Assembly: GCA_021818615.1 (NCBI GenBank)
Contig: JAKATT010000136.1
Coordinates: 37,981-101,980 of the forward strand
From: Actinomycetes bacterium
Lineage (GTDB): Bacteria; Actinomycetota; Acidimicrobiia; Acidimicrobiales; Bog-793
Direction of reading: 5' to 3'
DNA length: 64,000 nt
The notes beneath the pieces are model-generated. The model worked only from the letters and a program-made list of their open reading frames with translations, had not been told where the DNA came from and did no database searches. The translations under genes and the position numbers were made by a program. Positions 44,339-60,459 of the stretch are shown here, in pieces. Position 1 is the first letter of the stretch, and each line of letters opens with the position of its first letter.

Positions 44339-44630
44339 CCGGCGACTGCCGATCGATCCATCGCAGGAAGAACCGCATTCGGGCCGGCTCCCCGCCGCTG
44401 GTTGCGAGCAGCTCCTGTCGCAAGCCCTTGCTGATGTGGCCCGAGAGCCTTCCACAGGAAGCTCGGCACCCATACCTCGCAGTGGTGAGCGCCCCCGACG
44501 TCTGCCGGATCGCCCGGCGGGCTGTCGGCACCGGAAGCCGAGCAGCACCGTGGCGCCAGCGGCGACCACGTGCGTTCACGAGCCGGTGGGGCACCTCAGC
44601 CAGCCGGAGCCTCGAATACAAGGAGCGAGC

Positions 44631-44981
44631 GTGAAGATCCTCGTCATCTTGAACGACCCACCGTATGGGACCGAGCGCTCCTACAACGGGCTTCGTCTCG
44701 CGGGCGCCCTCGCCAAGCGCGAGGGCGTCGAGCTGAAGGTGTTCTTGTTCGGCGACGCCGTCGGCTGCGCGCTCGCCAAGCATAAGCTGCCCGACGGCTA
44801 CTACCACCTCGATCGGATGGTGGCTTCCGTCGTTCGCCACGGCGGCCAGATCGGCTGCTGTGGCACGTGCATGGACGCCCGTGCCTTCACCGACGACAAG
44901 CTCGTCGAGGGCGCCCGGCGGTCGAGCCTCGAGGACGCGACCGAGTGGACGATCTGGGCCGACAAGGTCGTGAGCTTTTGA
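44631..44981 (+). CDS. DsrE/TusD-like sulfur-relay family protein
   Basis: AAGGAG 6 nt before GTG 44631. VKILVILNDPPYGTERSYNGLRLA..VFLFGDAV..IGCCGTCMDARA. Confidence 0.7.
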   Translation: MKILVILNDPPYGTERSYNGLRLAGALAKREGVELKVFLFGDAVGCALAKHKLPDGYYHLDRMVASVVRHGGQIGCCGTCMDARAFTDDKLVEGARRSSLEDATEWTIWADKVVSF

Positions 44982-45105
44982 GCACGACGGGTCCGCGTCA
45001 CACGGGGGCACACCTCGCCGCGGTGACGAAGCGGCAGTTCACGAGCTCGACGAGATTCCTTGGTGACATCGAACGCGGGGCTCTCCTCGACAACGAGGTC
45101 ACACG

Positions 45106-46326
45106 GTGACCGGGCGCGTGCGGGTAGTCATCGTCGGAGGTTCCTTCGGCGGCCTCACCACCGCCTACGAGCTACGCCGCCAACTCTCACCCGAGCGGGC
45201 GGAGATCACCCTCGTCGCCAAGGAGGAGCGCTTCACCTTCGTCCCCTCGCTCACCTGGGTGGTGACGGGGTCGCGCACCCTCCCCCAGATCTCCTTCGGC
45301 CTCGCCAGGCCGCTCGCCGCCAAGCAGGTCCACTTCGCCCACGGGACCGTGACCGGCATCGACACCGAGGCCAAGGTGCTGACGACGACGAGCGGCGAGC
45401 ACCACTACGACTTCCTCGTCGTGGCCACCGGACACCGCAGCGCCAACGAGGCCGTCGAGGGCCTCGGGCCCTTCGACGGGCCGGGGCACTCGCCCATGTC
45501 CCCTCCCGAGGCCGAGGAGCTCGCCATAGCGGTTCGTGCTCTGCTCGCCGACCCCGGCCCGATCGTCGTCGGCGCAGCGCCCGGTGCGAGCTGCATCGGA
45601 CCGGCCTACGAGCTCGCCTTCGGGCTCGATCACCTGCTGCGCCGGCACAAGCTGCGCCACCTCGTGCCGATGAGCTTCGTCACCCCCGAGCCCTACCTGG
45701 GCCACATGGGCATGGGCGGCGCCGGCAAGATCCGCCAGCTCCTCGAAGGCGAGCTCGAGGAGCGCGACATCTCCTACCGAACCTCCGCGGCGGTGACCAA
45801 GATCACCGCCGACGCCGTGGATGTGGCGGGGGAGAGGTCGATCCCCTCGGTGCTCTCGATCGTCATCCCGCCACTCGCCGGGGTCGAGGCGGTCGCCACG
45901 AGCCCAGGGCTCGCCAACCCCAAGGGCTTCATCGCCGTCGACGCCCACTACCGTCACCGGAGTGCAGTGGGCGTCTACGCAGTCGGGGTGGCCGTTGCGC
46001 TTCCACCCGTCGGCGAGACCCCGGTGCCGGTCAACTTCCCGAAGACCGGCCACATGACCGAGCAGATGGCACAGATCGCCGCCTCCGACATCGCAACCCG
46101 GATAGCTGGAGCAAAGCCTCGCAGCTTCGAGCTGTCCGCCCGCTGCGTGCTCGACATGGGCAACAGCGGCGCCTACCTGGCGGTCGATCCCGTCCGCCCG
46201 CCGCGAGACAAGATCCCGACCGTGTCCGAGGGACCCCAGTGGCTGCTCGCCAAGCGGGTCTTCGAACAAGCCTACCTCTGGCACGCCAAGCACGGCCGGC
46301 GGATGCCGACCGCGATCGGGTGGTGA
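45106..46326 (+). CDS. Sulfide:quinone oxidoreductase-like FAD-dependent oxidoreductase
   Basis: VVIVGGSFGGLTTA (FAD); PGASCIGPAYELAF and ARCVLDMGNSGA (positions of the SQR redox cysteines); FPKTGHMTEQ. NDH-2 is less likely, as there is no second dinucleotide motif. Confidence 0.7.
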   Translation: MTGRVRVVIVGGSFGGLTTAYELRRQLSPERAEITLVAKEERFTFVPSLTWVVTGSRTLPQISFGLARPLAAKQVHFAHGTVTGIDTEAKVLTTTSGEHHYDFLVVATGHRSANEAVEGLGPFDGPGHSPMSPPEAEELAIAVRALLADPGPIVVGAAPGASCIGPAYELAFGLDHLLRRHKLRHLVPMSFVTPEPYLGHMGMGGAGKIRQLLEGELEERDISYRTSAAVTKITADAVDVAGERSIPSVLSIVIPPLAGVEAVATSPGLANPKGFIAVDAHYRHRSAVGVYAVGVAVALPPVGETPVPVNFPKTGHMTEQMAQIAASDIATRIAGAKPRSFELSARCVLDMGNSGAYLAVDPVRPPRDKIPTVSEGPQWLLAKRVFEQAYLWHAKHGRRMPTAIGW

Positions 46327-46329
46327 CAG

Positions 46330-46818
46330 GTGCGCCGACGCCGAGGGCCTGAGCCCCTCGTCCTCGGCGCGGTTCTCTCGGTGCTGTCAGGACAAGGGAC
46401 CTCGGTGCGGGTCCTGTGCTTCACCCACGCCGAAGCCTCGACGCTCGATGGAGCGAGCCGGCCCCTCGGTGCAGTCCGGGCCGAGGAGCTCCGAGCTGCG
46501 GCCGCTGTGCTCGGGGTCGACGAGGTCACCTTGCTGTCGTACCCAGATGGCGATCTCGGCGAGATCCTGAAGGGTGCAGTGCCGCTACGAGTTGCTCGCG
46601 CCGCTCCACGCCTGGGCGAGCGGGAGAAGCTCGTTCACGCGGCGGCGCGAAGGCGAGCGATCGAGCTGCTGCATCTGCCTCGCGGCGGCCAACCGTCGCC
46701 GGCACGCCGGGGACCGGTCGAGCGCGACACCGACGAGCACACGCTGGAGCGGTCCACCCGGGGCTGTGTGACTGTGGCTGCTGGAACGGCGAGGACTGCT
46801 GGATGCCATGTTCGCTGA
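46330..46818 (+). pseudogene. PIG-L/LmbE-family deacetylase-like fragment (degenerate)
   Basis: VRVLCFTHAEASTL..LGAVRAEELRAAAAVLGVDEVTLLSYPDGDL resembles the family core. The N-terminal HPDDE motif and the C-terminal half are not recognisable. Confidence 0.3.
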
Positions 46819-46998
46819 ATCCACCGGATGCACTCTCCTCGCTGTCGGTCGTCACGAGCGCCAACCGGCTGCGCCGGTCGCGCCTGGTCAGAACGCCTCC
46901 TTCGAGCAGACGTGCTGCACGAAGCCCTCGCCCCTCGATCGGGCGGCACGTCGCGACCGGCGCGACCCAAGCGGCGTGAAGTCACCGGAGGGCGAATC

Positions 46999-47418
46999 GT
47001 GCAAGTGAAAGGCGCTGCACCAAGCGCTGATCAAGAGTCGTCGCGCTCACCCGATGGGAGAGGCACCTCGCCGCTGGCCGCATCCCTCGCCGGCCTCGTG
47101 CTCAAGCCGTTCGCCGGGTGGGCGGCGCCCGCGGCGATCGCCGGCCGCACCCTGGCGATGTTCGAGGCCCTGGTGGACGAGGACATCGAGCGCGACCACG
47201 CCGTCGAGCTGGTGGGGGATGCCTGCTGGGAAGTCTACGCGCAGTGGGGCCAGATCCCAAAGCTCGCATCGTGGATACGCTCCGGTGACCGGGTGCTGGC
47301 ACGCCTGTGGGGCGGCCATCTCGAACGCCATGGTTCGCTTCCCGGAGGCGCACCGTGTTGTGACTTCCGGTTCAAGGCGGATGTGGAACCGCCCTCGCCG
47401 CCAGTGCGGAGTTCGTGA
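46999..47418 (+). CDS. Hypothetical protein ending in CCDFRF
   Basis: GGAGGG 6 nt before GTG 46999. GC3-rich frame from about 47060 (LAASLAGLVLKPFAGW..VELVGDACWEVYAQWG..GGAPCCDFRFK). Any family assignment would be a guess. Confidence 0.35.
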   Translation: MQVKGAAPSADQESSRSPDGRGTSPLAASLAGLVLKPFAGWAAPAAIAGRTLAMFEALVDEDIERDHAVELVGDACWEVYAQWGQIPKLASWIRSGDRVLARLWGGHLERHGSLPGGAPCCDFRFKADVEPPSPPVRSS

Positions 47419-47588
47419 TGCGGATCCAATGCGCCGCGTGCGGCTGCATCGTCGACGGCGGCATCCGAGTCGCCGTGTGCGGCGACCCTCGATCTTGCTG
47501 CTCGGCCCTGCCCGTAGTCGAGGACCTCCCTCGATCCTCCACCGCCGACGCATCCGAAGAGCAGGACCGCTCCGCGCACCACACCTGA
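47418..47588 (+). CDS. 56-aa Cys-rich micro-ORF (not in track)
   Basis: ATG overlaps the upstream TGA by 1 nt (TGATG). MRIQCAACGCIVDGGIRVAVCGDPRSCCSALPVVEDL... has six Cys in the first 28 residues. No homology evidence available. Confidence 0.3.
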   Translation: MRIQCAACGCIVDGGIRVAVCGDPRSCCSALPVVEDLPRSSTADASEEQDRSAHHT

Positions 47589-47653
47589 AGACGCCAGCAC
47601 CTACGAATCGGAGAAACCCTTGCGCAGCCGGGACCGTTCCGGGTGCCGCTTTC

Positions 47654-48979
47654 TCAGATCCGCGCCAGGGTCAGGGGCACCATGACCAGGCCGAAGCCGA
47701 CGACGCCGAGGCACAGAGCCGTGGCGGTGACACGACGGGCGCCGTGCATCCGGTGCTCCTCGGCGAGGGCCCGCCTCTCCAGCGCCAGCAGGAACCCCAG
47801 CACGATTGGCAGCAGGAGGGCGTTCATGACCATGACGTCCGTGACCAAGCCGACGAGGTCGACGCTCAGGAGCACCATGACTGCACCGGCGACGTGCGCT
47901 GCGCTGTATGCGATGTAGAACTTCGCCGTCTTGGCGCTGGGCTTCTCGTTGAGCGTGTGGGTCCAGCCCGAGACCTCTGCGAGCCCGAAGGCGCCCGCGA
48001 GGGAGGCGACCAAGGCGGCCACGAGAGCCGCACCGAGCATGGCGCCACCGAGGAGGATCCTCGCCCCGGCGACCCCGAGGAACGGCAGGAGCGCCGAGGA
48101 CATCTCTCCCACGGTCTCGAGGGAGGCGCCGGGATGATGCAAGCCGACCGTGGCAGCAAAGGTGACGACAGTGGCGATCATGACGAGCTGGGTCAGGACC
48201 GCCCCGGTGGCGGTGTCTCGTCGCGCGCTGCGGATATCTCGCGCCCCCAGCCCTTTGTCGATCACCGCACCCTGCTGGTAGAAGATCATCCACGGCATGA
48301 TCACGGCCCCGACGTTGGCGGCGAGCAGCTCCACGTACGAAGCGCGCTCGAGCGGCAGGTGACCCAAGCCTGCACCGAGGGACGGGAGGCTCGGGTGGGC
48401 GAGGATCATGGCCGGGATGAAGACCAGCTCCATCAGCCCGAGCACCACCCCGGCGCGCTCGGCCCGGCGATAGCTGCCAGTGAGGGCGATGCCGATGAGG
48501 AAGGCGGCGGCGAGCGGCACGGTGAGGACCCGGGAGACGCCGAAGAGCTCCCCGACGCCCGCCACGGCGGCGAGCTCGGTGAGGAGCGCTCCGACCGCCG
48601 ATGCGAAGAGCGTCGTCGCGGAGAGCCATGCCCAGCCCGGCCCGAAGCGCTCCCGGATCAGAGCGCCGTGGCCTTTGCCGGTGTGGATGCCGAGCCGGAC
48701 GGTCATCTCCTGGACGAAGTAGAGGACCGGGACGAGCACGAGCTGGGGTAGGAGCATTCGGTAGCCCCAGCGAGCTCCGGACTGAGCCGCCGTGATCAAG
48801 CTCCCGGCGTCCGTGTCGGCCAACATCACCAAGAGGCCCGGGCCCCACACGACCATGAGCCCTGCGAGCAGCAAGCGCCGTCTGCGGCGCGGCAACCCGG
48901 CGAGGGGACGGGGGAGTGTTTCGGTGGCTGCTGTCGGACCAACGACTCCGATACGGCCAGGCATGCGCCACCGCCCCAT
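47654..48979 (-). CDS. NRAMP-family metal transporter with non-canonical TM1 motif
   Basis: LLVMLADTDAGSLITAAQSGARWGY..YFVQEMTVRLG..AVIMPWMIFYQQ. Eleven or more hydrophobic segments. Begins 3 nt after the DUF3105 stop. Confidence 0.8.
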   Translation of the reverse strand: MGRWRMPGRIGVVGPTAATETLPRPLAGLPRRRRRLLLAGLMVVWGPGLLVMLADTDAGSLITAAQSGARWGYRMLLPQLVLVPVLYFVQEMTVRLGIHTGKGHGALIRERFGPGWAWLSATTLFASAVGALLTELAAVAGVGELFGVSRVLTVPLAAAFLIGIALTGSYRRAERAGVVLGLMELVFIPAMILAHPSLPSLGAGLGHLPLERASYVELLAANVGAVIMPWMIFYQQGAVIDKGLGARDIRSARRDTATGAVLTQLVMIATVVTFAATVGLHHPGASLETVGEMSSALLPFLGVAGARILLGGAMLGAALVAALVASLAGAFGLAEVSGWTHTLNEKPSAKTAKFYIAYSAAHVAGAVMVLLSVDLVGLVTDVMVMNALLLPIVLGFLLALERRALAEEHRMHGARRVTATALCLGVVGFGLVMVPLTLARI

Positions 48980-48982
48980 CCG

Positions 48983-49852
48983 CTACGGTTGAAGCGGGGT
49001 GCCGACGCCTCCTGCGCAAGGACCACCGAGCTCGGGCGTGTAGCGCTGGCTCGCCCGGAAGGTGTCGACGAACCGCTGCAGCCTTGGGTCGTTCGGCGAG
49101 TTGACCCGCAGCTGGAATCCCCACGAGGAGATGACGATTGGCGAGGCCAGACCGGGGAAGGGGCTCAGATCGACGTAGCGCGACCCGGAGTGGTCCACGA
49201 CGCTCTGTCGCGACTCGAAGGAACGCAACTCGGCTACTTCGGCGGGTGGAAGCGATGGTTGGTAGGTGATCCAGACGGCGCCGTGCTCGAGGTCATGGAC
49301 GGCACGCTCGTTCGGCACCGGGTTGTCGTAGACCCCGCAGTTCATCCACACCGCGTTGTGGTCGCCGCCGACCGGCGGGATGACGGCGTAGCTGACGGGA
49401 CCGGAGACGTGGGTGTGCCGAAGTGCGCGGACTGCGGGGCCATTGTGGCTGTCGGCCGGCCAGCCGGTGGTGTCATAGGCGACAACTCCCGGGATGCCCG
49501 AGGTGTTCGGCACTTCGAGCGCGGCCGGCTGCACGTCGGGAGTCCCGCCTCCAACTCCTGGCGGCATGGTCTCGTCGCCCGTCCGGGTCCCCGAACCGCC
49601 CGAGACAAGCAAGACCACGATCAGCACGAGCACGAGGATCGTGGCGACGGCGCCCCCACCCCACCAGGCGACGCGTCGGCGGCGCCTTCGCGCCTCCTCG
49701 GCGGCGCGCTGCCCGGCGAGCTCGGCCTGACGCCCGCGGCGGATCTGAGCCTTGGTCGGGCGGCGCGCAGTCGGCGGTGCCATGCGGCTGGAGCCCGGAC
49801 GGCGAGCGTGCGGCTCGCTGCGCTGCTTCGGAGTCGTCGCTTGTCGGCTCAT
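48983..49852 (-). CDS. DUF3105 domain membrane-anchored protein
   Basis: Basic N-terminus plus TM (GGAVATILVLVLIVVLLV), then YAVIPPVGGDHNAVW..AVHDLEHGAVWITYQP. An alternative duplicated start lies at 49882. Confidence 0.75.
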   Translation of the reverse strand: MSRQATTPKQRSEPHARRPGSSRMAPPTARRPTKAQIRRGRQAELAGQRAAEEARRRRRRVAWWGGGAVATILVLVLIVVLLVSGGSGTRTGDETMPPGVGGGTPDVQPAALEVPNTSGIPGVVAYDTTGWPADSHNGPAVRALRHTHVSGPVSYAVIPPVGGDHNAVWMNCGVYDNPVPNERAVHDLEHGAVWITYQPSLPPAEVAELRSFESRQSVVDHSGSRYVDLSPFPGLASPIVISSWGFQLRVNSPNDPRLQRFVDTFRASQRYTPELGGPCAGGVGTPLQP

Positions 49853-49896
49853 CTGTAACCTCTCAATCGCTTGTCGGCTCATCTGCGACCTCTCGC
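49837..49896. repeat. 30-bp tandem duplication (26/30 identical) spanning the TorD stop and the DUF3105 RBS/start
   Basis: TCGCTTGTCGGCTCATCTGTAACCTCTCAA / TCGCTTGTCGGCTCATCTGCGACCTCTCGC. Each copy carries GAGAGGT-N5-ATGAGCCGACAAGCG in gene sense. Confidence 0.85.
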
Positions 49897-50522
49897 GGGT
49901 TCTCCCTGCGGCGCAGGTCTGCCTCGACGAGCGACAGCGCGCAGGACACAAGGAGCCGCGGCATCTCGCCGGTGTGCTTTGCCTCCAGTGCCGCCGCCAG
50001 GCGCGGCAGCCACGCGACGAGATGGGCGAGCATCGCTTCGACCCGGCGGGCCCGTTCTGGACTGGCAGGACGACCGGAGGCCACCGCCACGAAGGCGAGC
50101 TCCACGCCGACATGGTCCGGCGCCTGGATGAGTGAGCCCCCCGGACCGCGCCGGCGCCGGTCCCACGAGAGCTCCTCTGCGTCGAGCAGCGCGAGGACAT
50201 CGAAGGTGGACCGACCCCAGAGCAGCCCGTCGTCGAGGTAGACGGAGGCATAGGACGGAACGTGCCGAGCGGGGACCGGCGGCCCGAAGCAGGCGATGTG
50301 GTCCGCCGCCGCCCGCGCCCGCTCGGTCGCGGTCGCGGCGGCGAGCTTCGTGATCGTGCTGATCCATACGTCGCGGTCCTCGCACACGCGGGCGGTGGCC
50401 TCGATGAGAGAGTCCAGCTCCGGCAGCGAGTCACGGCTCACGGCGGCGGGGCCGTCAAGAAAGGCGTGAGCCAACAGGTCATAGCTGGCGGTGAAGACGT
50501 CAATGGCCTGGGCAGTGAGCAT
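49863..50522 (-). CDS. TorD/DmsD/NarJ-family redox-enzyme maturation chaperone
   Basis: MLTAQAIDVFTASYDLLAHAFL..ACFGPPVP..SLIQAPDHVGVELAFV (E/QPxDH motif). GGAGAGGA upstream. Starts 3 nt after the catalytic gene stop. The upstream 291 codons of the ORF are rejected. Confidence 0.75.
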   Translation of the reverse strand: MLTAQAIDVFTASYDLLAHAFLDGPAAVSRDSLPELDSLIEATARVCEDRDVWISTITKLAAATATERARAAADHIACFGPPVPARHVPSYASVYLDDGLLWGRSTFDVLALLDAEELSWDRRRRGPGGSLIQAPDHVGVELAFVAVASGRPASPERARRVEAMLAHLVAWLPRLAAALEAKHTGEMPRLLVSCALSLVEADLRRRENPREVADEPTSD

Positions 50523-50524
50523 CG

Positions 50525-53500
50525 TCAAATCCTCTCCACGGCAACTCGCGTCTCGAAGTAGGCCTGGCCGCCGGTGACCGCGTCCATGCACCCGACCGTC
50601 CACCCGTCGGCACCGGCGAGGGAGGTGTCGAGCCGGATGACCGAGTTGAGCCGCACCGCAGTCCCCCGGGTGGCGTCGCCGCCGACCGCACTGCCGTCGA
50701 TCGTCGTGCTCGCAGCCCCGGATTGCCAGTGCCCGTAGCCGTGGGGGAAGGCGACGACGCCCGGTCGCACGCCGGGGAGCAGCCGCAGGCGGCCGACGGG
50801 TGCCCGCTCGCGGGGCAGCGTCGCGGAGTAGACACGCACGAGGTCTCCCGCTTCGAACCCGCGGCGGGCGGCGTCGCTCGGGCACATGTCGATGAACCCC
50901 TCCGGCATGAGCTCGGTGAGCCAGGGATCGACGATGCACTGGCTGTGGCTGAGGATCGTCGACTTGTGGGTGCTGAGCACGAAGGGGAAGCGCGAGGCGG
51001 GATCGAGCTGCTCGAAGCTCCTCCCTGCCAGGTCGGTCATCGGCGCGAAACGGGCGGTGCCGCAGAAGCGCTCGCCGCTGAGCGAGTTGCGGGTCGTCGC
51101 CACGTCGGGGTTGTAGAGCTGGCAGGGGAGCCCGCCCTGTCCGTAGCGGTAGGTCATCCACGCCGGGCCGGTGGCCGGGTTCGCTGGAAGCCTTACCGCC
51201 GACAGGAACGACGCCCGCACCTCGGCAGGGCTGATCTGGTTGGTGGCACGGGCGTAGTGCTCCAAGCCGGTGTCGAGCACGAGGTTCTGGACGATCCTGC
51301 CCAGGCGGGAACTGCTGCCCGTGCTCGGTAGGTACGCGACCTCGTAGTCCTCGAAGCGCCCGCCACGCGCCAGCACGTAGGCGACCTTCGGCCACTCGGA
51401 GCTTCTGATCGCGCGGCGGCGGGTGGCAATCAGCGGCGCGACTGCGGCAAGCTCGGCCCTGCTCGCGTTTGGGACGGGTCCCAGGTTGTGCAGAGCTCCG
51501 TCACGCCAGGCCTGGAACGTCGGGTCGTAGGCGACGTTGGCCACCATCTTCAGGTAGTAGTCCTCACGGGTGTCGAGGGAACCCCCCTCGGCGAAGGCGT
51601 GCTCGCCGAAGCCCGGCAGGCCGAGCGCTTTGGCGACGTCGATGAGGAACTGCTCCATGCACATCGGGTAGCCGCTGGCTGTGTGCCCGGTGAGGGGCTC
51701 GATCACGGGCTGGCGGACGCCCTGGGCCTTGGTCGGGACGACGGGCCAGACGCCCGGGAACTCCCACGACTCGAGGAAGGTCGTGTCCGGCACGACGTAG
51801 TCTGCGAAGACGGCAGTCTCCGACATCACGATGTCGGTGGCGATGAAAAGCGGCACCCTGTCGAGGTCGGTGATGAGCCGCTGGAAGGGGAGGGCGGGGT
51901 CGTCGCAGCCGCCGATCGCTGGCGCGCTCCAGGCCGGGTTGGCGGCATGTGACAGGACGATCTTCGCCCCGTACGGGTAGCCCTCGCGGATCCCGGCGAA
52001 CATCTCCGGCCACTGCCCGCCGCCGAAAGGGAACCAGGGCCGCCGCGCCGGGTAGGGATTGACGCCGGCCTTCACTTTGGCGGCGTACTCGCCGGAGGTC
52101 TCGTAAGCGACGCCGCTACGCGAGATCGGGACGCCGGCAGGGACGTTGGCGGGCTGGCCCGGCCAGGACCCGAGCGCGTACGGAGCCCCGGAGCTCCCTC
52201 CGGCGTAGTCCGCCGTCCCGCCGCCGACCACGTAACCGCCCATCCAATCGAGGCTGCCGACGAGGAAGTTGAGCGTCATGACAGCCCGGCAGGCGTAGAA
52301 GCCGTTCGTGTGCATGGCGGGACCGCGCCCGTAGTCGGCCACCGCCTGGCGGCCGTAGCTGGTGAACTCGGCCGCCAAAGTGGCGATCAGCTCCGGGGGG
52401 ACCCCCGCCTGGGTGGCGTACTGCTCGAGGCTGAGCGCGCGGGCCTCGCCGTAGAGGAGCTGGAACCCGGTAGCGCACCTGACGCCGTTAACCACGGTTG
52501 TGTTGGTGTCGAGCGCGCCGGCCGGCCAGAGCTCACCGGATCGTGCGCCGGTGGCGGGCACGGGCACCCTCGTCGAAGGGTCGATCACGACGCCCGCCTG
52601 CCCGGAGCCGGAGGCAAGCCCCATGGAGCTTCCACCGCCACCTCCCATCTTCTCTGGGGAGAGCCCCGCCTCGGCGGGCGTGAGGAACGATCCGTAGCGG
52701 GGATGCTGCGGGTCGGAGACGACGAGCCAGGTGGCATTGGTGAAGCTCGGCATGCCCGCCTTCGCCGCCGCCTCCTGGCTCGGGCACGACAGGTAGGCGG
52801 CGTCGTAGGCGGCCTGCTCGATGATCGAGCGGATCATCCCCATGGCGAGGGCGCCGTCGCCGCCCGGGCGGACGTAGACGCAGCGATCGGCGTACATCGA
52901 CGAGTTGTTCGCCCGGACGTCGACGACTACGAAACGTAGGGATCTGGAAGCAGACGCCTCGGCGACCTTGCGCCCGAGCGCCTGCATCGGGAACCCTCCC
53001 GTCGTAGGGTTCAGCCCGAAGAAGATCACGTACTGGGCGTTGGCGAGATCCGGCTTGAGCGGGTCCGTCATCCCGTCGAGCGAGAGCATCGTCGCCTTCA
53101 TGCGGGGGAGGTCGCAGACGGCGTCGGCCGCTTCGAGGTTGACCGTCCCGAACGAGGACGCGAAACGTGAGAGGAGATCCGTCTGGCCGTTCTCGGCCAT
53201 TCCGTAGAAGACGACGAGGCCGTTCGTCTCCGGGCCGAGACCTGGGTCGGCCGGGTCGATCGGCCGGTAGCGCCCGCGACCATGGTCGTAGAGACCGGCG
53301 AAGCCCTCGACCTGACGGCGCTCTTCCCCCGCCACCGCCGAGAAGAGCGTCCCGCCGGCGACGACCTCGTCGACGAGCTGCTCCCAAGAGACGGCCTCGA
53401 AACGCCCCGAGCCCCGCGGCCCGCTCCGCTTGAGGGGAAGGGTCAGCCGGTAGGGGTCGTAGACGGTCTGGCGGCCCGCTTGCCCCCGGTTGCAGAGCGA

Positions 53501-55081
53501 GTGCGGAGTCGCCCACACCGCCGCCGAGGCGGCAGGCGTGGCATACCGGGCGTGCGGCTCGGTGCTGGCGGGGTGGTAGGGATTCCCGTCCAACTTCTGA
53601 AGGACGCCCCCGAAGACCTCGGCGGCGAGGCCACAGTCGCTCCCGCACTGCTTGCAGACGCTGTAGATGGTGCTCACGCCGGTGAGGGTCGCCGGGCGGT
53701 CCGGGTAGACGAAGGTGCCCCTGCGATGGAAGAGGTCGCCCACCCATGGCGCCGCACCCCAGCTGGCGGCGGCAACGCCGCCGCTCACCATCCCGGTACG
53801 GGCGAGGAAAGCCCTGCGGCCAAAACGTGCCCGGCCGTCCGCCGCCGGCTCGAGGCGATGAGATGACGGAGCGGAAGGAGTGCCCACCGGTGCAGGCAAG
53901 AGCGTGCCGGCAGGCTCCGTGTCCCGAGCAGCCGCCTCGCGCCAGGGCAACAGCCAGGAGAAGAAGAGGAACAGCAAGACGGCGATGGCGAAGACCCCGA
54001 GCACCGTCTGGACGGAGTCGAAGCCGGTGAGCGGCACCGACATGTGGACGATGCTCGAGGAGACCTTCGACTCCATTTGCCCGCCGAGCACGACGTTGTA
54101 GCGCATCGCGTAGACCCCGACCACGACGCAGAGGGCGATGGCGGCTCCCCCGAGCACGGAACGCCTGACCGGCCGGACGAGGAATAGGAGCAGCGGCAGC
54201 ACGATCCCCACTCCGAGCTGGAGGCCGAGGTAGCTGAAGGCGTGCGGTCCGTGCAGGAAGACCGAGCTCACGCCCTCGCTCACCGGTCCCTGCGTGTAGG
54301 CGGAGACGCCACTCGTGACGAGGTCGACGACGTCCAAGAAGCCGTCGAGGGCGAGGAAGCCCACCAGCCAGAAAAGGAGCGTCCGGGTCAGCTCACGGTC
54401 GCACTGATCGCGGTAGAAGCGTCCCGTGAGCCCGTAGACGAGATACATGAAGGCCATCCCGGAGACGACCGCCGAGACGATGAAGAGCACGGGCATGAGC
54501 GCCGTCGACCAGATCGCCCGTGCCTTCACCGCCCCGAAGACGAAACCGATGTAGCCGTGGAACAAGAAGGCGAGCAGGATGCCGATCGCCGAGAGGCCGA
54601 CGAGCACCTTGGCGTCTCGCCGCTCGGCCCGCTCGCTCAGGTCGCTGCTCCCGAGAGCGAGCAGCGAGGAGAGCCGCGCCCGCCAACCGGTCCCGCCGGC
54701 GCGCATGACGTTCTTGCGCCGAAAGGCGAAGTAGGTCTCGACGGTCATGAGCACGACGTAGCTCAGCCAGATCAAGGTGAAATCGCCGAGCGGCGACCAA
54801 GGGATGTGCGGGCGGGTGAAGAGCTCGAAGGCGTTGACGGGTTGGCGGGCGTCGGCGAGCACGGTCACGGGGGCGGCGAGAAGGAGGGAGAAGCTGACGA
54901 TGAGGGCGAGAGGGGCGAGCCTTGCGAGGCGATGCACCTTGAAAACGTGGCTGAGCGAGGCGACAACGAACGAGCCGGCGACGAGGCCGGAGATGAACGG
55001 GTAGGTGGCGATGAGCAGTCCCCAGTAGACGTTCTCGAGGGCACCTCCTCGAAGGCCCGGGTCGAGCGCGAGCATTCTCAT
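50525..55081 (-). CDS. Fused NrfD-type membrane anchor + internal Tat motif + bis-MGD molybdopterin oxidoreductase catalytic subunit (TtrC-TtrA-like fusion), 1518 aa
   Basis: ATG 55081 (GGAGGGG upstream). Residues 1-380: nine hydrophobic segments of NrfD/PsrC type. Residues 421-447: GRRAFLARTGMVSGGVAAASWGAAPW. Then FS0 motif CKQCGSDC..C, GNPYHP, ALAMGMIRSI, and ~1090 residues to ..AVERI. No stop anywhere in the frame. Confidence 0.8.
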   Translation of the reverse strand: MRMLALDPGLRGGALENVYWGLLIATYPFISGLVAGSFVVASLSHVFKVHRLARLAPLALIVSFSLLLAAPVTVLADARQPVNAFELFTRPHIPWSPLGDFTLIWLSYVVLMTVETYFAFRRKNVMRAGGTGWRARLSSLLALGSSDLSERAERRDAKVLVGLSAIGILLAFLFHGYIGFVFGAVKARAIWSTALMPVLFIVSAVVSGMAFMYLVYGLTGRFYRDQCDRELTRTLLFWLVGFLALDGFLDVVDLVTSGVSAYTQGPVSEGVSSVFLHGPHAFSYLGLQLGVGIVLPLLLFLVRPVRRSVLGGAAIALCVVVGVYAMRYNVVLGGQMESKVSSSIVHMSVPLTGFDSVQTVLGVFAIAVLLFLFFSWLLPWREAAARDTEPAGTLLPAPVGTPSAPSSHRLEPAADGRARFGRRAFLARTGMVSGGVAAASWGAAPWVGDLFHRRGTFVYPDRPATLTGVSTIYSVCKQCGSDCGLAAEVFGGVLQKLDGNPYHPASTEPHARYATPAASAAVWATPHSLCNRGQAGRQTVYDPYRLTLPLKRSGPRGSGRFEAVSWEQLVDEVVAGGTLFSAVAGEERRQVEGFAGLYDHGRGRYRPIDPADPGLGPETNGLVVFYGMAENGQTDLLSRFASSFGTVNLEAADAVCDLPRMKATMLSLDGMTDPLKPDLANAQYVIFFGLNPTTGGFPMQALGRKVAEASASRSLRFVVVDVRANNSSMYADRCVYVRPGGDGALAMGMIRSIIEQAAYDAAYLSCPSQEAAAKAGMPSFTNATWLVVSDPQHPRYGSFLTPAEAGLSPEKMGGGGGSSMGLASGSGQAGVVIDPSTRVPVPATGARSGELWPAGALDTNTTVVNGVRCATGFQLLYGEARALSLEQYATQAGVPPELIATLAAEFTSYGRQAVADYGRGPAMHTNGFYACRAVMTLNFLVGSLDWMGGYVVGGGTADYAGGSSGAPYALGSWPGQPANVPAGVPISRSGVAYETSGEYAAKVKAGVNPYPARRPWFPFGGGQWPEMFAGIREGYPYGAKIVLSHAANPAWSAPAIGGCDDPALPFQRLITDLDRVPLFIATDIVMSETAVFADYVVPDTTFLESWEFPGVWPVVPTKAQGVRQPVIEPLTGHTASGYPMCMEQFLIDVAKALGLPGFGEHAFAEGGSLDTREDYYLKMVANVAYDPTFQAWRDGALHNLGPVPNASRAELAAVAPLIATRRRAIRSSEWPKVAYVLARGGRFEDYEVAYLPSTGSSSRLGRIVQNLVLDTGLEHYARATNQISPAEVRASFLSAVRLPANPATGPAWMTYRYGQGGLPCQLYNPDVATTRNSLSGERFCGTARFAPMTDLAGRSFEQLDPASRFPFVLSTHKSTILSHSQCIVDPWLTELMPEGFIDMCPSDAARRGFEAGDLVRVYSATLPRERAPVGRLRLLPGVRPGVVAFPHGYGHWQSGAASTTIDGSAVGGDATRGTAVRLNSVIRLDTSLAGADGWTVGCMDAVTGGQAYFETRVAVERI

Positions 55082-55086
55082 GTCGC

Positions 55087-56157
55087 TCACTCCCCTCCGA
55101 GGGGTGTCTGCAGGACCATCTGGCCGCTGAGCTCGGCGTACTGATCGGTGTTGGTGCCGACGGCGTAGGGGTAAACGGTGTCGAAGGCGGTGGCGGCGCT
55201 CACGAGCTCGCCGTTCAGGTTGATGTAGAAGATCTGCGGATCCGTCCCCTCCTCGGGAAGGAGCGTGATCGTCGGGTACTGGGCAAGGAGCTGGGAGGCG
55301 GCGCTCTGCGGGTCGTTGAGGTCGCCGAAGACCCGCGCCCTTCCGACGCACGAGGTGACGCAGGCAGGGAGGAGTCCCCGGTCGAGGCGTTGCACGCAGA
55401 AAGTGCACTTGTCCGCCGTCTCCTGCACGCTGTGGAAATATCGGGCGTCGTACGGGCAGGCCTGGATGCAGATCCCACAGCCGATGCACTTCGTGTAGTC
55501 GACAAGGACCGGGCCATCCCCGCGCTTGAAGGTGGCCTGCACCGGGCAAACGATGACGCAGGGCGGGTTGTCGCAGTGGTTGCAAAGTCGGGGGAGCGCC
55601 CACCGCTTCACCGTCGGCGTGAAGCGCCCGTCTTCGGTGACGATGGAGCCCGACGGATCCCGGACCATCGTGCCGAGCTCGACCACCTCCACCCAGGTGC
55701 GGTAGTTGCCCGGCGGCACGTTGTTCTCGCTCTTGCAGGCGACCACGCAGGCCTGGCAACCGATGCAGCGGCGCAGGTCGATGACCATCCCCCAGTGGTG
55801 CGATGCGGCGGACTCGTCGGGGAAGGCCTCGTAGTAGGCGGGCTGGTCGCGCGAGTTGAGGATGGTGGGCACCCAGGCGCCCGGCCGGCTCCAACCGTCT
55901 GGCCGGGCGTTCAGCTCGTCGACCGTCCAGCTCGCCCAGCGGGGCTTGAGCGCGAGCACCTTGGAGAGGGGAAGGCGGCCCTTCAGGCGGGTCGGAAGGA
56001 GCGCTGCGGCGGTCCGTCCGGCCCGCAAGCGGGTGACGACGCCCCCGGACGCGGCAGCGACCGTCATCCCGAGCGCAGCTGTGAGAGCCTGGCGGCGCGT
56101 GAACGCGACCCGCTCGCCGGTTGCTCGGGAGTCGTCCGGTCTCGATCTCGCCCCCAT
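55087..56157 (-). CDS. Tat-targeted 4Fe-4S ferredoxin subunit (TtrB/PsrB/NrfC-like)
   Basis: Tat signal FTRRQALTAALGMTVAAASGG. Cys clusters: CIGCQACVVACKSEN, CNHCDNPPCVIVCP, CIGCGICIQACPYDA, CTFCVQR..ACVTSC. About 90-residue insert between the signal and the first cluster. Confidence 0.9.
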   Translation of the reverse strand: MGARSRPDDSRATGERVAFTRRQALTAALGMTVAAASGGVVTRLRAGRTAAALLPTRLKGRLPLSKVLALKPRWASWTVDELNARPDGWSRPGAWVPTILNSRDQPAYYEAFPDESAASHHWGMVIDLRRCIGCQACVVACKSENNVPPGNYRTWVEVVELGTMVRDPSGSIVTEDGRFTPTVKRWALPRLCNHCDNPPCVIVCPVQATFKRGDGPVLVDYTKCIGCGICIQACPYDARYFHSVQETADKCTFCVQRLDRGLLPACVTSCVGRARVFGDLNDPQSAASQLLAQYPTITLLPEEGTDPQIFYINLNGELVSAATAFDTVYPYAVGTNTDQYAELSGQMVLQTPLGGE

Positions 56158-56238
56158 CGGCTCTCATGCTCCGCCGTCCCGGCAGTCCCCACATCGGCGA
56201 AGCCGCTTACATCGGCCGGTAATCCCGCCTAGGCGATC

Positions 56239-56297: not shown

Positions 56298-56927
56298 ATG
56301 TCGCCCCGCCCGATCCGCGTCATTGTCGTCGACGACCACCAGGTCGTGCGGGAGGGGACACGGCGGATCCTCGAGGCGGCGGGTTTCGAAGTTGTCGCCG
56401 AGGCTGCCACGGCCGCCGAGGCCGTCACGGCGGTCGCCGCCGGTTCCCCTGACGTCGTCCTCGCCGACGTCAGGCTGCCGGGCATGACCGGCATCGATCT
56501 CACCGCCCTCTTGAAGGACAGGCATCCGGCGATCAAGGTGCTGATCCTCTCGTCGTACGCGAACCCGGCTTACGCTCGAGCGGCGCTCAAGGCGGGTGCT
56601 GCCGGCTATCTGGTCAAGACCGCCTCCGACGACGAGCTCGTGGGCGCCGTAAGGTCGGCGTCGCTCGGTACGGGGGTGCTCGACTCGGGCGTCTTGTCGG
56701 AGCTCATCTCGGAGACGGGCGGCGACTTCCAGATGCTCACGGGCCGGGAGCGCGACGTGGTCGAGCTCGTCGTCGCAGGGCTCCCGAACAAGGGGATCGC
56801 CGCCCGCCTCGAGGTGAGCCCGCGGACGGTCGATGCCCACCTTGCGCACCTGTTCACCAAGCTCTCCGTCTCGTCACGGGCCGAGCTCGTGGCGTGGGCA
56901 GCCCGCCATGGGATGTTGGGGGAGTGA
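56298..56927 (+). CDS. NarL/LuxR-family response regulator
   Basis: IRVIVVDDHQVVREG..DVVLADVRLPGMTG receiver domain. LuxR HTH: LTGRERDVVELVVAGLPNKGIAARLEVSPRTVDAHLAHLFTKL. Confidence 0.9.
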   Translation: MSPRPIRVIVVDDHQVVREGTRRILEAAGFEVVAEAATAAEAVTAVAAGSPDVVLADVRLPGMTGIDLTALLKDRHPAIKVLILSSYANPAYARAALKAGAAGYLVKTASDDELVGAVRSASLGTGVLDSGVLSELISETGGDFQMLTGRERDVVELVVAGLPNKGIAARLEVSPRTVDAHLAHLFTKLSVSSRAELVAWAARHGMLGE

Positions 56928-58288
56928 CCGGAAAGGTGCCCTCGGAGCGGCCCGGGAAGGGACTCGGCGCCTATCTGCCGCCGATCCACGACCGGCGCTT
57001 CTGGTTCACCCAAGGGCTGGTTCTCGTGGTGTCCATCGCCCATGCGGTCGTCCACATAGCGGTCGGCGGGTTGCCCGACGTGCTCGTCCTGATCCTGTAC
57101 ACGTTCCCGGTGATCTATGCGGCTCTCGAGTTCGGCTTCCGGGGCTCGGTCGCGACGACGGCGCTCATAGTGGTGCTCTCGCTGCCCTTCGTCATCCACG
57201 ACGCCCTGTCGGGCGTCGGCTCGGATTTCGTAGGGCACCTCGTCGAGCTCGCCATCCTCGTCGTGGTCGCTCCGGTCGTGGGGCGGGTGGTCGAATCGGA
57301 GCGAGCCGCCCGCCGGGCGCACGAGGTGGCGGAGATCCGGTACCGGGCGCTCTTCGAGGCGAGCGGCGTGCCAGCCCTTGTCCTCGACGAACAGGGATGT
57401 ATCCAGGAGGCCAACCCTGCCGCCGCATCGTTGCTGCAGGGCGAGCTGCAGGGCAGGCACCTGAGCCAGGTGCTCGGCATGGCGGCCGCGGACGCGATCC
57501 TCGGAGGCGACCCGCCGCAACGACTCGACGTCTCCTCGGGCCTGGCGTTGCGGCCCATAGTCTCGGCTGCCGTGGGCGAGGCGGGTGAGCGCCTCGCCCA
57601 GGTCCTGTTCCAGGACGTCACGGAGGAGACCGCCGGCAGCCGGAGGACTCGGGCCTTCGCCCTTGCCGTCCTCGTCGCCCAAGAAGACGAGCGCCGGCGT
57701 ATCGCTCAGGAGCTCCACGACGAAGCGTTACAGCTCGTGGTCGAGCTCCGTCGCCGCGTCGAGCGAGTCGTGCGGTCCAGCCCACCCGACTGCGCCGGAG
57801 GCGAAGAGCTGCTCGCGGCGCGTTCGCTCGCCGACGCCGTGATCGAGGAGCTCAGGACCGTCGCCGTCCGTCTCCGCCCGCCCGACCTCGCCGATCTCGG
57901 TCTCACAGCCTCACTCGAGCGGCTCGTTGCCGAGGCCCGCCGCCGGGGCACTCCGGCCGAGATCGAGGTCGAAGGCCGCGAGCCCGCCCTCCCGCCGGAC
58001 TTCGCTCTCTCGCTCTACCGGGTAGCCCAGGAGGCGCTCACGAATGCTGAGCACCACGCCCGGGCCCAGCACGTCGGCTTGCGGCTCGACTTCTCGGACT
58101 CGAGCGCTGTCCTTGTCGTCGAGGACGACGGGGTCGGGTTCGTGGTGGGCGATGCCGCGGCGAGCGAGGCGAACGCCCATCTGGGACTGCTCGGGATGCG
58201 CGAGCGGTTGCAGCTCGTTGGCGGGACCCTCGAGATCACCTCTGCGGTCGGCGAGGGAACGACCGTTGCCGCGGCCGTGCGCCTCTAG
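56894..58288 (+). CDS. Membrane sensor histidine kinase (HisKA_3/NarX-type) with PAS-like domain
   Basis: Four N-terminal hydrophobic segments; PAS-like YRALFEASGVPALVLDEQGCIQEANPAA; H-box EDERRRIAQELHDEALQ; HATPase VEDDGVGF..GLLGMRERL. GTG 56924 (GTGA with the regulator stop) is an alternative start. Confidence 0.85.
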   Translation: MGSPPWDVGGVTGKVPSERPGKGLGAYLPPIHDRRFWFTQGLVLVVSIAHAVVHIAVGGLPDVLVLILYTFPVIYAALEFGFRGSVATTALIVVLSLPFVIHDALSGVGSDFVGHLVELAILVVVAPVVGRVVESERAARRAHEVAEIRYRALFEASGVPALVLDEQGCIQEANPAAASLLQGELQGRHLSQVLGMAAADAILGGDPPQRLDVSSGLALRPIVSAAVGEAGERLAQVLFQDVTEETAGSRRTRAFALAVLVAQEDERRRIAQELHDEALQLVVELRRRVERVVRSSPPDCAGGEELLAARSLADAVIEELRTVAVRLRPPDLADLGLTASLERLVAEARRRGTPAEIEVEGREPALPPDFALSLYRVAQEALTNAEHHARAQHVGLRLDFSDSSAVLVVEDDGVGFVVGDAAASEANAHLGLLGMRERLQLVGGTLEITSAVGEGTTVAAAVRL

Positions 58289-58779: not shown

Positions 58780-60459
58780 ATGAATCGTACAGCGAACCAT
58801 ACCCCAGTCAGAGGACGGGCGGCCCGCCCCGGCGGCGAGTTCTTCGCCCGCCCGGCCGGGCCCAACCACCGTCGCTTCGAGGCCCTACGTGCGTACCTGT
58901 GGGAGGGGGCCAGCGGCGAGGAGGCCGCGGCGAGGGCCGGCTACTCGTTGGAGACGCTGCGATCGGTGGTGCGGGACTTCCGCGCCGGCAAGACCGGGTT
59001 CTTCATCGACCCGCGGCCCGGGCCGAGGCGTGCCCCGGCCAAGAACGCGGCGCGTGAGCGCATCATCGAGCTGCGCCGTGCCGGCCACTCGGCCACGGAG
59101 ATCTCCGAGGCGCTTCTCGGCACCTCGACCCCGCTCAACCGCACCGGGGTCGCCGAGGTGCTGGCCGAGGCCGGGTTCCCCCGCCTACCGGTACGACCGC
59201 CCGCCGAGCGTGGCGCCCCCTACCGCTACCACCCCCGCCGGGCCGCCCGCATTGTGTTCGGCGAGCTGGCGCCACGGGCCGAGACCAAGGTTGGCGGGCT
59301 GCTGGCCGTCGTCCCCGAGCTCGTCGCGCTCGACCTGCCCGGCCTCATCAGAGCCGCCGGCTACCCCGGCACATCGGTCATCCCGGCCACGAGCTACCTG
59401 CTGTCGCTGCTCGCCTTGAAGCTGGTCGGGGTCGCTCGGGTCTCCCACGTCGAGGACCTGGCCGCCGATGTCGGAGCCGGGCTGTTCGCCGGGCTGGTGG
59501 CCCTTCCCAAGGCCACCGCGCTCACCACCTACTCCTACCGGCTCGACCACTCCCACCAGGCCGCATTCCTCGCCGCGCTCGGCAAGGCGATGCTCGCAGC
59601 CGACCTCGTCTCGGACGCCTCCGGCGACCTCGACTTGGACTTCCGCGCCATCATGCACTGGGGCGAGGACGTGGTCCTGGAGAAGCACTACGTCCCCCGC
59701 CGCTCCCAGCGCACCCGCTCGGTGCTGAGCTTCTTCGCCCAAGACGGCGCCAGCCAGACCCTCGTGTATGCCAACGCCGACCTCACCAAGGACACCCAGG
59801 CCCGCGAGGTGCTCGTCTTCGCCGAGCTCGACGCCAAAGGCATCAACTTCCTCACCCTCCGCATGCGCTCACCGTCGCTCCTCCGCCACATCGCCTCCCT
59901 GCCCCCATCGGCGTGGCGGACCGTGGCTCTCGATCGCGACGGCAACTACCGCCGCCCGAAAGTCGTCGACGAACAAGTCAGCATCTCCGCCTACCCCGGC
60001 ACCGTGCGCCAGCTCGTCGTCACCGGCCTCGGTCGCGACGCCGCGACGGTCATCATCACCAACGACCGCGTCGCCACCGCCAAGCAGCTCATCGAGCGCT
60101 ACGCCCGGCGGATGAACATCGAGCAGCACTTGGCCGAATCGATCCGCTCGTTCCACCTCGACGCCCTAGCCGGCTCCGTGCCGCTCAACGTCGACCCAGA
60201 CGTCGCGCTATCGGTGCTCGCCGGCGCGGTGCGCGCGTCGTTGCGCCGCCGGCTCACCGGCTACCACCACGCCACCCCAGACACCCTCCAACGCCGGTTC
60301 CTGTCCACAGGAGGCCTCATCGTCGACAACGGTGACTCCGTCCTCGTCCAACTCAAACGGCGCACCTACTCCCCGGTGCTTCGCCAGGCCGACATCCCCG
60401 AGGTCGCAGTCCCCTGGTGGGGGGGACGCACCCTCCGCTTCGAATACGACCGGCGATAG
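58780..60459 (+). CDS. Putative transposase (family not assigned)
   Basis: N-terminal HTH-like (AAARAGYSLETLRSVVRDF, IIELRRAGHSATEISEAL); LDFRAIMHWGEDVVLEKHYVPRRSQRTRSV; IERYARRMNIEQHLAESI. Flanked by other IS debris. Intactness not verifiable by eye. Confidence 0.6.
   Translation: MNRTANHTPVRGRAARPGGEFFARPAGPNHRRFEALRAYLWEGASGEEAAARAGYSLETLRSVVRDFRAGKTGFFIDPRPGPRRAPAKNAARERIIELRRAGHSATEISEALLGTSTPLNRTGVAEVLAEAGFPRLPVRPPAERGAPYRYHPRRAARIVFGELAPRAETKVGGLLAVVPELVALDLPGLIRAAGYPGTSVIPATSYLLSLLALKLVGVARVSHVEDLAADVGAGLFAGLVALPKATALTTYSYRLDHSHQAAFLAALGKAMLAADLVSDASGDLDLDFRAIMHWGEDVVLEKHYVPRRSQRTRSVLSFFAQDGASQTLVYANADLTKDTQAREVLVFAELDAKGINFLTLRMRSPSLLRHIASLPPSAWRTVALDRDGNYRRPKVVDEQVSISAYPGTVRQLVVTGLGRDAATVIITNDRVATAKQLIERYARRMNIEQHLAESIRSFHLDALAGSVPLNVDPDVALSVLAGAVRASLRRRLTGYHHATPDTLQRRFLSTGGLIVDNGDSVLVQLKRRTYSPVLRQADIPEVAVPWWGGRTLRFEYDRR

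Follow-up and report, generated by a model that had tools for sequence, protein, structure and literature searches.

Can the membrane anchor and the catalytic subunit of a quinol-coupled molybdoenzyme be made as one protein and, if so, how would such a protein be built into the membrane? The question is raised by a 64,000-nucleotide stretch of DNA from an Actinomycetes bacterium (Acidimicrobiales, Bog-793; assembly GCA_021818615.1, contig JAKATT010000136.1, positions 37,981 to 101,980), here called the window, on whose minus strand one reading frame spans an NrfD/PsrC-type anchor and a molybdoenzyme of the bis(molybdopterin guanine dinucleotide) (bis-MGD) type. An earlier note, made from the sequence alone, had drawn attention to this frame. 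We find a fusion of the genes ttrC and ttrA, and our preferred reading, which we regard as probable but well short of certain, is that of a genuine, recent, in-frame event in a ttrB-C-A-D operon, whose product is tolerated and is assembled by the joint action of the Sec and the twin-arginine translocation (Tat) pathways.

The single frame of 1,518 codons for anchor and catalytic subunit that the earlier note had claimed is indeed there, uninterrupted from ATG 55081 to TGA 50525 and with all of the domains present (Table 1). Its extent needs one correction, as the open frame extends upstream as far as 56194 (1,889 codons). A gene of that length was rejected: the additional 371 codons are Arg-rich, overlap ttrB in another frame and match no domain. 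The apparent product of 1,889 residues, with its extension at 55082-56194 on the minus strand, is a read-through driven by base composition (70% GC) and a trap for programs that call open reading frames (ORFs). ATG 55081 reads as the true start of the fused gene because it sits 8 nt after GGAGGGGAG and because the N-terminus MRMLALDPGLRGG aligns with the N-termini of stand-alone TtrC proteins. Profile searches in Pfam detected NrfD within the N-terminal part as well as Molybdopterin and Molydop_binding, as the earlier note had anticipated, and all three MopB-type domains score above their cut-offs. The best NCBIfam match of the C-terminal part is TtrA (NF011567; 589.7 bits, below the equivalog cut-off of 1750) and the TtrC match of the N-terminal part is weak (NF011568; 21.5 bits against a cut-off of 314); the TtrB-like protein encoded upstream stays below its equivalog cut-off, too. 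The catalytic domain is thus best called TtrA-like, and since none of the three cut-offs is reached, the substrate could be tetrathionate, thiosulfate, polysulfide or another compound.

Table 1. The fused gene, the parts of its product and the neighbouring genes. Nucleotide positions are those of the window, residues those of the fused protein; TM, transmembrane.
Feature	Position (nt)	Strand	Residues	Basis and remarks
Fused ttrC-ttrA ORF	50525..55081	minus		1,518 codons plus TGA, continuous frame; four Pfam domains; best NCBIfam match TtrA
NrfD/TtrC-type predicted quinol-binding anchor	53936..55081	minus	1-382	nine TM helices, N-terminus outside, C-terminus cytoplasmic
NrfD (Pfam PF03916)			16-336	E = 1e-30, 107.6 bits against a cut-off of 25.8
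Pro/Ala linker	53828..53935	minus	383-418	36 residues with 10 Ala and 7 Pro; predicted cytoplasmic and disordered
Internal twin-arginine signal, predicted tenth TM	53732..53827	minus	419-450	RFGRRAFLARTGMVSGGVAAASWGAAPWVGDL, then H452-R453-R454
TtrA-like bis-MGD catalytic domain	50525..53731	minus	451-1518	~118 kDa
Molybdop_Fe4S4 (Pfam)			471-542	E = 2.8e-06
Molybdopterin (Pfam)			617-1105	E = 1.9e-18
Molydop_binding (Pfam)			1368-1457	E = 4.3e-11
ttrB-like four-cluster ferredoxin	55087..56157	minus		own Tat signal FTRRQAL; Pfam Fer4_11; NCBIfam TtrB 247 bits
ttrD-like TorD/NarJ-family chaperone	49863..50522	minus		Pfam Nitrate_red_del, E = 2.9e-11
NarL/LuxR-type response regulator	56298-56927	plus		Pfam; divergent from operon
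PAS-HisKA_3 sensor kinase	56894-58288	plus		Pfam; divergent two-component system, placed like Salmonella ttrRS
DUF3105	48983-49852			downstream of operon
Nramp metal transporter	47654-48979			downstream of operon
Pyr_redox_2 flavoprotein, may be SQR-like (sulfide:quinone oxidoreductase)	45106-46326			downstream of operon
DsrE	44436-44981			downstream of operon
Class-V aminotransferase / cysteine-desulfurase-like gene	43061-44338			downstream of operon

The anatomy described in the earlier note held up throughout. Nine strong hydropathy peaks lie between residues 22 and 382, and nine long helices are likewise found in an AlphaFold2 model that covers residues 1-470 (made from 48 homologues) and whose mean confidence (predicted local distance difference test, pLDDT) is 82.8, with most 10-residue blocks of the helical core (21-380) above 90 and values below 50 over residues 415-470. 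In Foldseek searches the anchor model matched the ActC chains 6f0k_C, 6btm_C and 8k9e_C (TM-score ~0.7) and PsrC (2vpw_C), and it has the core fold of the NrfD family, two four-helix bundles as in PsrC and ActC. Lys and Arg residues are concentrated in the cytoplasmic loops (3/9/3/2/7, 24 in total) compared with the outer ones (2/2/2/0/1, 7 in total), which by the positive-inside rule places the N-terminus outside and the C-terminus in the cytoplasm. Nine helices with an N-terminus facing the P-side and a C-terminus facing the N-side are also the hallmark of the TtrC subtype (PMC8076601), and for Salmonella TtrC nine helices and a C-terminus on the N-side were predicted independently (PMC8076601). 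The linker, put at about 40 residues in the earlier note, measures 36, and across it the model confidence falls from ~67 to ~47. It is followed by the expected twin-arginine motif, G-R422-R423-A-F-L (residues 421-426, with the two Arg codons at 53813-53818), by a weakly hydrophobic h-region (mean Kyte-Doolittle value 0.85 versus 1.5-2.8 for TM1-9 and 2.77 for TM9) and by a basic c-region (HRR 452-454), all of them sequence marks of a Tat substrate; the segment aligns with the N-terminal Tat signals of unfused TtrA relatives. The catalytic subunit is complete, with three Pfam domains, the FS0 [4Fe-4S] motif C476-x2-C479-x3-C483 (53633-53656), a fourth Cys downstream and GNPYHP. Its nearest solved chain is PsrA (2vpw_A), and some 25 residues (451-475) separate the predicted TM10 from the first FS0 cysteine.

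Where does the fusion come from? In the relatives of this operon the two genes are separate. All 21 TtrA clusters at 50-81% identity are unfused (~1,050-1,125 residues, without NrfD), all 104 TtrC clusters at 28-76% identity stand alone (most 390-463 residues, a few being shorter partial entries), and separate ttrC and ttrA genes were found in 31 of 31 loci from GTDB species representatives wherever the junction was present (~27 readable junctions). These loci come from Actinomycetota, Bacillota and Chloroflexota metagenome-assembled genomes (MAGs), Sulfobacillus, Acididesulfobacillus and Symbiobacteriaceae, and a scan of genome contigs revealed no more diverged carrier of the fusion among them. 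Metagenome contigs yielded 16 loci in the same kind of scan, none of them close, and word-indexed searches, whether queried with the full protein or with residues 1-470, returned unfused relatives only. Within its own clade the fusion therefore looks like a one-off, the outcome of a single recent event.

The nearest relative (locus L001) has a ttrC of 417 codons and a ttrA of 1,107 codons that overlap by the 4 nt ATGA. The anchor of the window is 79% identical to this stand-alone TtrC, and the catalytic domain is 81% identical to an unfused TtrA (P0002). In L001 the tail of TtrC, reading "...EGG..", encodes the GGAGG Shine-Dalgarno (SD) sequence of ttrA. Compared with L001, the window lacks ~13 nt with the ATGA overlap and the preceding GGAGG; the aligned indels (-9, +5, -13) are not to be taken literally, and with 19% protein divergence from the nearest unfused relative and a tail that aligns poorly, the exact path is beyond reconstruction. 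The state of the junction is plain: the ancestral stop codon has been lost together with the SD and the ATG of ttrA, and ttrC runs on in the frame of ttrA, whereas the other operon boundaries (ttrB/ttrCA and ttrCA/ttrD) have kept a strong SD. A separate ttrA start was sought between TM9 and the twin arginines, and the only in-frame candidates, TTG (L395) and GTG (V399), were rejected, neither having an SD within 5-12 nt. Since the junction has neither SD nor ATG, TtrA would have no other source than the fused protein. The linker appears to be a remnant of the variable TtrC tail, and the likely scenario is a short indel in this tail that removed stop, SD and start codon and brought the two frames into register.

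Three other explanations deserve to be weighed against a working fusion. That the fusion is an artefact of sequencing or assembly, by a stop codon lost or an indel collapsed in GC-rich low-complexity DNA, is hardly credible. Indel errors would be plausible in the GC-rich Pro/Ala-coding stretch that contains the junction, and the 371 spurious upstream codons illustrate how easily long ORFs arise at 70% GC. Yet at least 11 contigs, drawn from six or more runs or assemblies, carry the same fused gene, in two haplotypes. Haplotype A is represented by nine contigs (among them the NCBI MAG GCA_028063625.1, ENA ERZ27237336, Logan DRR872538 and SRR13205817), and the gene is identical in DNA sequence to that of the window in all four whose sequence was read; haplotype B (two contigs, ERZ27237364 and SRR13206618) shares the fusion while differing from A at 46 sites over 16.9 kb (~0.3%). 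As different assemblers (MEGAHIT at ENA; Logan for four runs, namely SRR13205817, SRR13206618, DRR872538 and one other; the NCBI MAG), runs and haplotypes agree on the junction, and as the SD and ATG of ttrA have disappeared along with the stop codon, the artefact is rejected: the fusion is genuine, and a lost stop or a frameshift error is excluded for practical purposes. GenBank already holds the identical protein (MDA8040223.1, from the MAG GCA_028063625.1, Actinomycetota bacterium) under the label "polysulfide reductase NrfD". A mutation may be real, of course, without the design being a working one. The fused product could misassemble or work less well, in a locus that is decaying or in a host for which the respiration is dispensable, and although we consider this unlikely, several observations do speak for it. 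The gene is a singleton among more than 100 unfused relatives, the haplotypes are only ~0.3% apart and the event may be young, substitutions private to the window at otherwise invariant sites are slightly numerous, and a transposase of the insertion-sequence (IS) type adjoins the locus. Set against this are 4.5 kb without a stop or frameshift, intact FS0 cysteines, twin arginines, coupled chaperone gene, ttrB and regulators, and independent lineages that hold the same architecture over deep divergence. Selection also seems to have been at work: relative to L001 the anchor has a dN/dS of 0.21 and the catalytic part one of 0.23, and of the five haplotype differences inside the gene four are synonymous and one is the conservative A438V (nt 53769, in the Tat h-region), a pattern with P ~0.018 for at least four synonymous changes out of five under neutrality (25.8% synonymous sites). 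At sites that do not vary among 21 unfused relatives, seven changes in TtrA (range 0-38) and three in TtrC (range 0-5) are private to the window protein, all of them conservative (I/V, Y/F, N/S and L/V among them). Together these data argue against decay, if with low power.

The remaining alternative, one ORF that yields two proteins, is still less probable. Signal peptidase could cut after the Tat h-region, which would free an ordinary mature TtrA and leave TtrC one helix longer, or some free pre-TtrA could arise by internal initiation at TTG or GTG. By inspection the A-A-A/S of the h-region (residues 436-439) fits the -3/-1 rule, the two alternative starts are placed 24-28 codons upstream of the twin arginines, and an introduced signal-peptidase site allows engineered dual Sec/Tat reporters to be released (PMC5449189). 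The A-A-A/S, however, comes just ~10 residues into a hydrophobic stretch of 20 residues, and this stretch ends in a clade-conserved W-G-x-x-P-W-x-G-D that resembles the end of an uncleaved helix; the internal starts lack the SD that the true starts of the operon have in strong form, and a free TtrC could by no means result from internal initiation without a stop codon. The working, recent fusion accordingly remains the reading we favour, and the following points weigh against it. The fusion is confined to one species-level population, all clade relatives examined being unfused, and it may be a slightly deleterious or neutral recent lesion. The haplotype test of selection rests on just five polymorphisms, and in the number of private changes at invariant TtrA sites the window protein comes third out of 22. 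The TtrA and TtrC scores lie below the equivalog cut-offs, which makes any substrate putative, and the insertion energies (+7.5 for the Tat segment, -4.0 for TM9) are rough sums on a position-independent Hessa scale.

How would such a protein be assembled? With nine helices, an outer N-terminus and a cytoplasmic C-terminus, the catalytic domain would have to cross the membrane while tethered, which implies the use of both Sec and Tat; the earlier note's claim that a folded domain crosses the membrane tethered to a nine-helix anchor is thus supported by the modelled topology. The actinobacterial Sec/Tat precedent with five TM segments that it mentioned is correct and is Sco3746 (Tooke et al. 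2017, PMC5449189), a predicted haem b and molybdenum cofactor (MoCo)-binding protein; that paper mentions neither NrfD nor molybdopterin or bis-MGD. The known dual Sec/Tat substrates are Rieske proteins (3 or 5 TM), Sco3746 (5 TM), a polyferredoxin (5 TM) and YkuE-like proteins (4 TM) (PMC5449189, PMC7317946), and NrfD is absent from the experimental dual Sec/Tat literature represented by these two papers. Three determinants of the handover from Sec to Tat have been described, namely low hydrophobicity of the last helix, positive charges trailing it and a loop of at least 8 residues (Tooke et al., PMC5449189). In the fused protein the cytoplasmic loop comprises 48 residues (383-430), with R422-R423 directly before the final TM segment, and this segment has a positive estimated insertion energy and HRR on its C-terminal side. 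We infer from its sequence that no feature of a dual Sec/Tat-targeted membrane protein is missing from the fused chain. The ordinary unfused TtrA signals of the clade (RR...GWGxSPWxGDVFHRRG) already have all three determinants, so that the fusion would have needed no further adaptation, and since the C-terminus of the anchor is cytoplasmic the TtrA signal would lie in its normal orientation.

In the mechanism that we propose for the working fusion, the signal recognition particle and Sec would insert TM1-9 co-translationally, and the tenth segment would be released by Sec rather than inserted. The 118-kDa domain would fold in the cytoplasm and gain its [4Fe-4S] cluster and Mo-bis(pyranopterin guanine dinucleotide) (Mo-bisPGD), aided by a TorD-like chaperone. 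Tat would then recognise the internal twin arginines, insert TM10 and carry the folded domain to the outer face, where it would dock on a separately Tat-exported TtrB above its own anchor. TM10 itself is more likely an uncleaved helix, because the A-A-A/S comes early in the 20-residue hydrophobic stretch and this stretch ends in the conserved Trp-rich motif. Directly after the h-region (window residues 440-463) we noted the motif G-W-G-x-S-P-W-[VI]-G-[DN]-V-F-[HY]-R-R-G-[TI]-[FY]-V-Y-P-[DN]-R-P, which is near-invariant in TtrA of the Actinomycetota and Bacillota clade (L001, L004, L007-L012, L016, L026). Such conservation is unusual for a region that is normally removed or unconstrained, and it points to a signal-anchor that stays uncleaved and has a functional juxtamembrane segment. 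Whether the 1:1 stoichiometry of a fusion brings any benefit is a matter of speculation, given that in the unfused relatives the ATGA overlap already couples the translation of the two genes.

The uniqueness implied by the earlier note did not survive an exhaustive HMMER scan in which residues 1-800 were run against 1.84 billion representatives, nor the existing GenBank entry. Matches spanning the junction were P0028 (1,418 residues), P0030 (1,489), P0036 (1,470), P0084 (1,389), P0096 (1,364) and fragments. P0036 is a member of a Gaiellaceae family that comprises at least 34 clusters (90% identity) at 63-100% identity, all of them fused, with four domains and 1,452-1,493 residues; examples of ~1,470 residues are HWQ24901.1 and KatS3mg012_2409, and relatives of the family below ~61% identity are unfused. 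NCBI labels these fusions "NrfD/PsrC family molybdoenzyme membrane anchor subunit". In every case the anchor comes first and the enzyme second, with a Tat-like segment in between. The MopB domain of the window is 81% identical to an unfused protein and only 32-35% identical to every other fusion, and that of the Gaiellaceae fusion is 60-62% identical to the unfused P0216 versus 45-47% to the fused P0030. Because each fusion has closer unfused relatives by MopB identity, these values imply at least four or five separate NrfD-MopB fusion events. That the architecture might already be present in databases, a possibility the earlier note had raised, is thus true of existing entries and the Gaiellaceae family, but not of the window's own clade, which is otherwise entirely unfused: the architecture seems to recur in sequence space without being an established feature of that clade. 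No account of NrfD-MopB fusions turned up in a search of the open-access literature (topics NrfD, fusion, Tat, Gaiella and TtrC).

The Gaiellaceae proteins and P0028, P0030, P0084 and P0096 share with the window the order NrfD, linker, Tat-like segment and FS0-MopB. Like the window, the Gaiellaceae locus has a gene for an iron-sulfur (FeS) subunit upstream; the gene upstream of P0028 has no domain annotation. Unlike the window protein, Gaiellaceae members have an extra N-terminal helix and mostly one Arg in the motif, and these other fusions adjoin ArsR, ArsC-like and ACR3-like genes, with neither a TorD gene nor a two-component system next to them. About 34 of the 37 Gaiellaceae sequences (P0036, P0174-P0176, P0183-P0215) have a single Arg in [ST]-R-x-x-F-[LI]-G-[KQH], and T-R-R occurs in P0204, P0214 and P0215 only; in this long-established fused family the attachment to a Sec-inserted anchor may make the second arginine less necessary, or export may now take another route. 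The unrelated fusions of the loci L039 (GCA_026002995.1, Gaiellaceae) and L041 (the P0028 locus) both lie beside ArsR, LMWPc (ArsC-like) and SBF/ACR3-like genes, a hint that the substrates of these two enzymes are arsenic or related oxyanions and not sulfur compounds. Two further proteins, P0150 (643 residues) and P0100 (685 residues), join NrfD to a four-cluster ferredoxin with internal twin arginines (MDRRAFL and LSRRNFL) and are candidates for a second kind of dual Sec/Tat substrate on an NrfD anchor, of the TtrC-TtrB or NrfD-NrfC type. A broader reading of all these fusions, to which we give almost but not quite even credence, is that Sec inserts a complete quinol-binding subunit of nine or ten helices and Tat pulls a tethered, cofactor-loaded domain of ~118 kDa across; the class would have arisen at least four to five times, an ordinary Tat signal behind an anchor with a cytoplasmic C-terminus being pre-adapted, and the loss of Arg in Gaiellaceae may mean a relaxed need for twin arginines.

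Canonical Ttr systems (Salmonella ttrRS-ttrBCA; Sulfobacillus acidophilus tatA-ttrBCAD-tatC, PMC5114278) have the same gene order as the window, B, C, A and a TorD-type chaperone, and likewise a divergent two-component regulator, Tat signals on TtrB and TtrA and a nine-helix TtrC with a cytoplasmic C-terminus. The window differs in that TtrC and TtrA are one polypeptide with the TtrA signal internal, and in its scores below the Ttr equivalog cut-offs. By layout its closest kin is the dual Sec/Tat class (Rieske Sco2149 with 3 TM, Sco3746 with 5, polyferredoxin with 5, YkuE-like proteins with 4; PMC3471235, PMC5449189), which likewise has Sec-inserted helices, a cytoplasmic loop, twin arginines and a weakly hydrophobic last helix followed by positive charges and an outer cofactor domain. 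Here the helices number 9+1 as against 2+1 to 4+1, what Sec would insert is a whole, autonomous quinol-binding subunit, and the passenger, ~118 kDa with bis-MGD and [4Fe-4S], is far larger than the Rieske domain, while Sco3746 is just predicted to bind MoCo and haem b. The window fusion is also very recent, from two separate genes, and known here from sequence, whereas the dual Sec/Tat class has been tested experimentally. Another parallel is alternative complex III, a member of the complex iron-sulfur molybdoenzyme (CISM)/NrfD family in which normally separate subunits are fused as well (ActB = MopB-like plus FeS) and whose ActC, NrfD-like as is ActF, is the best structural match of the window anchor; it joins an A-like subunit with B instead of C with A, and its NrfD subunits remain separate. 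ActB is not known to carry a Mo cofactor.

The fusion is best described as a very young addition to the dual Sec/Tat-targeted class that derives from a Ttr-like CISM enzyme. Together with the unfused sister operon (81% identity) it offers a natural before-and-after pair for the "unifying mechanism" of Sec-to-Tat handover, with a substrate that far exceeds the Rieske, Sco3746 and polyferredoxin models in size and complexity. It also indicates that CISM/NrfD molybdoenzymes can merge anchor and catalytic subunit by minimal mutation where the C gene directly precedes the A gene, as in ttrBCA. The psr, phs and nrf operons are ordered A-B-C, which would account for such fusions being Ttr-like. For annotation the fusions pose a problem, as proteins of 1,400-1,500 residues labelled as NrfD anchors hide a catalytic domain and an unusual biogenesis. 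A fused anchor-enzyme could, moreover, simplify heterologous expression of a quinol-coupled molybdoenzyme and serve to probe the size limits of tethered Tat transport.

The surroundings are those of a Ttr-type operon, with the order B-C-A, a TorD-family chaperone gene and an adjacent two-component regulator, and the locus can be read as ttrB-ttrC::ttrA-ttrD with a ttrRS-like regulator; L001 has the same divergent two-component arrangement. The stop codon of the ttrB-like gene is 5 nt upstream of the ATG of the fused gene. At the other end the ATG of the ttrD-like gene follows 2 nt past the TGA, with its own SD, GGAGAGGA, upstream, and the two genes are probably translationally coupled. In the record of GCA_028063625.1 (L036) ttrB is called with 233 residues and thereby loses 123 N-terminal residues with FTRRQAL, whereas other callers give 356. 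The genes downstream (43061-49852) make up what looks like a sulfur-metabolism neighbourhood. On the regulator side an ORF of 559 codons for a transposase with HTH and DDE domains (58780-60459, plus strand) is intact in the window and split in haplotype B (L002/L003) into 252 and 324 residues by an 11-nt insertion (59538) and a 1-nt indel (60426); an IS element thus appears to border the ttr locus and to vary between strains. The relatives of the locus include acidophile lineages, among them Sulfobacillus, Acididesulfobacillus and the AMDSBA1 MAG.

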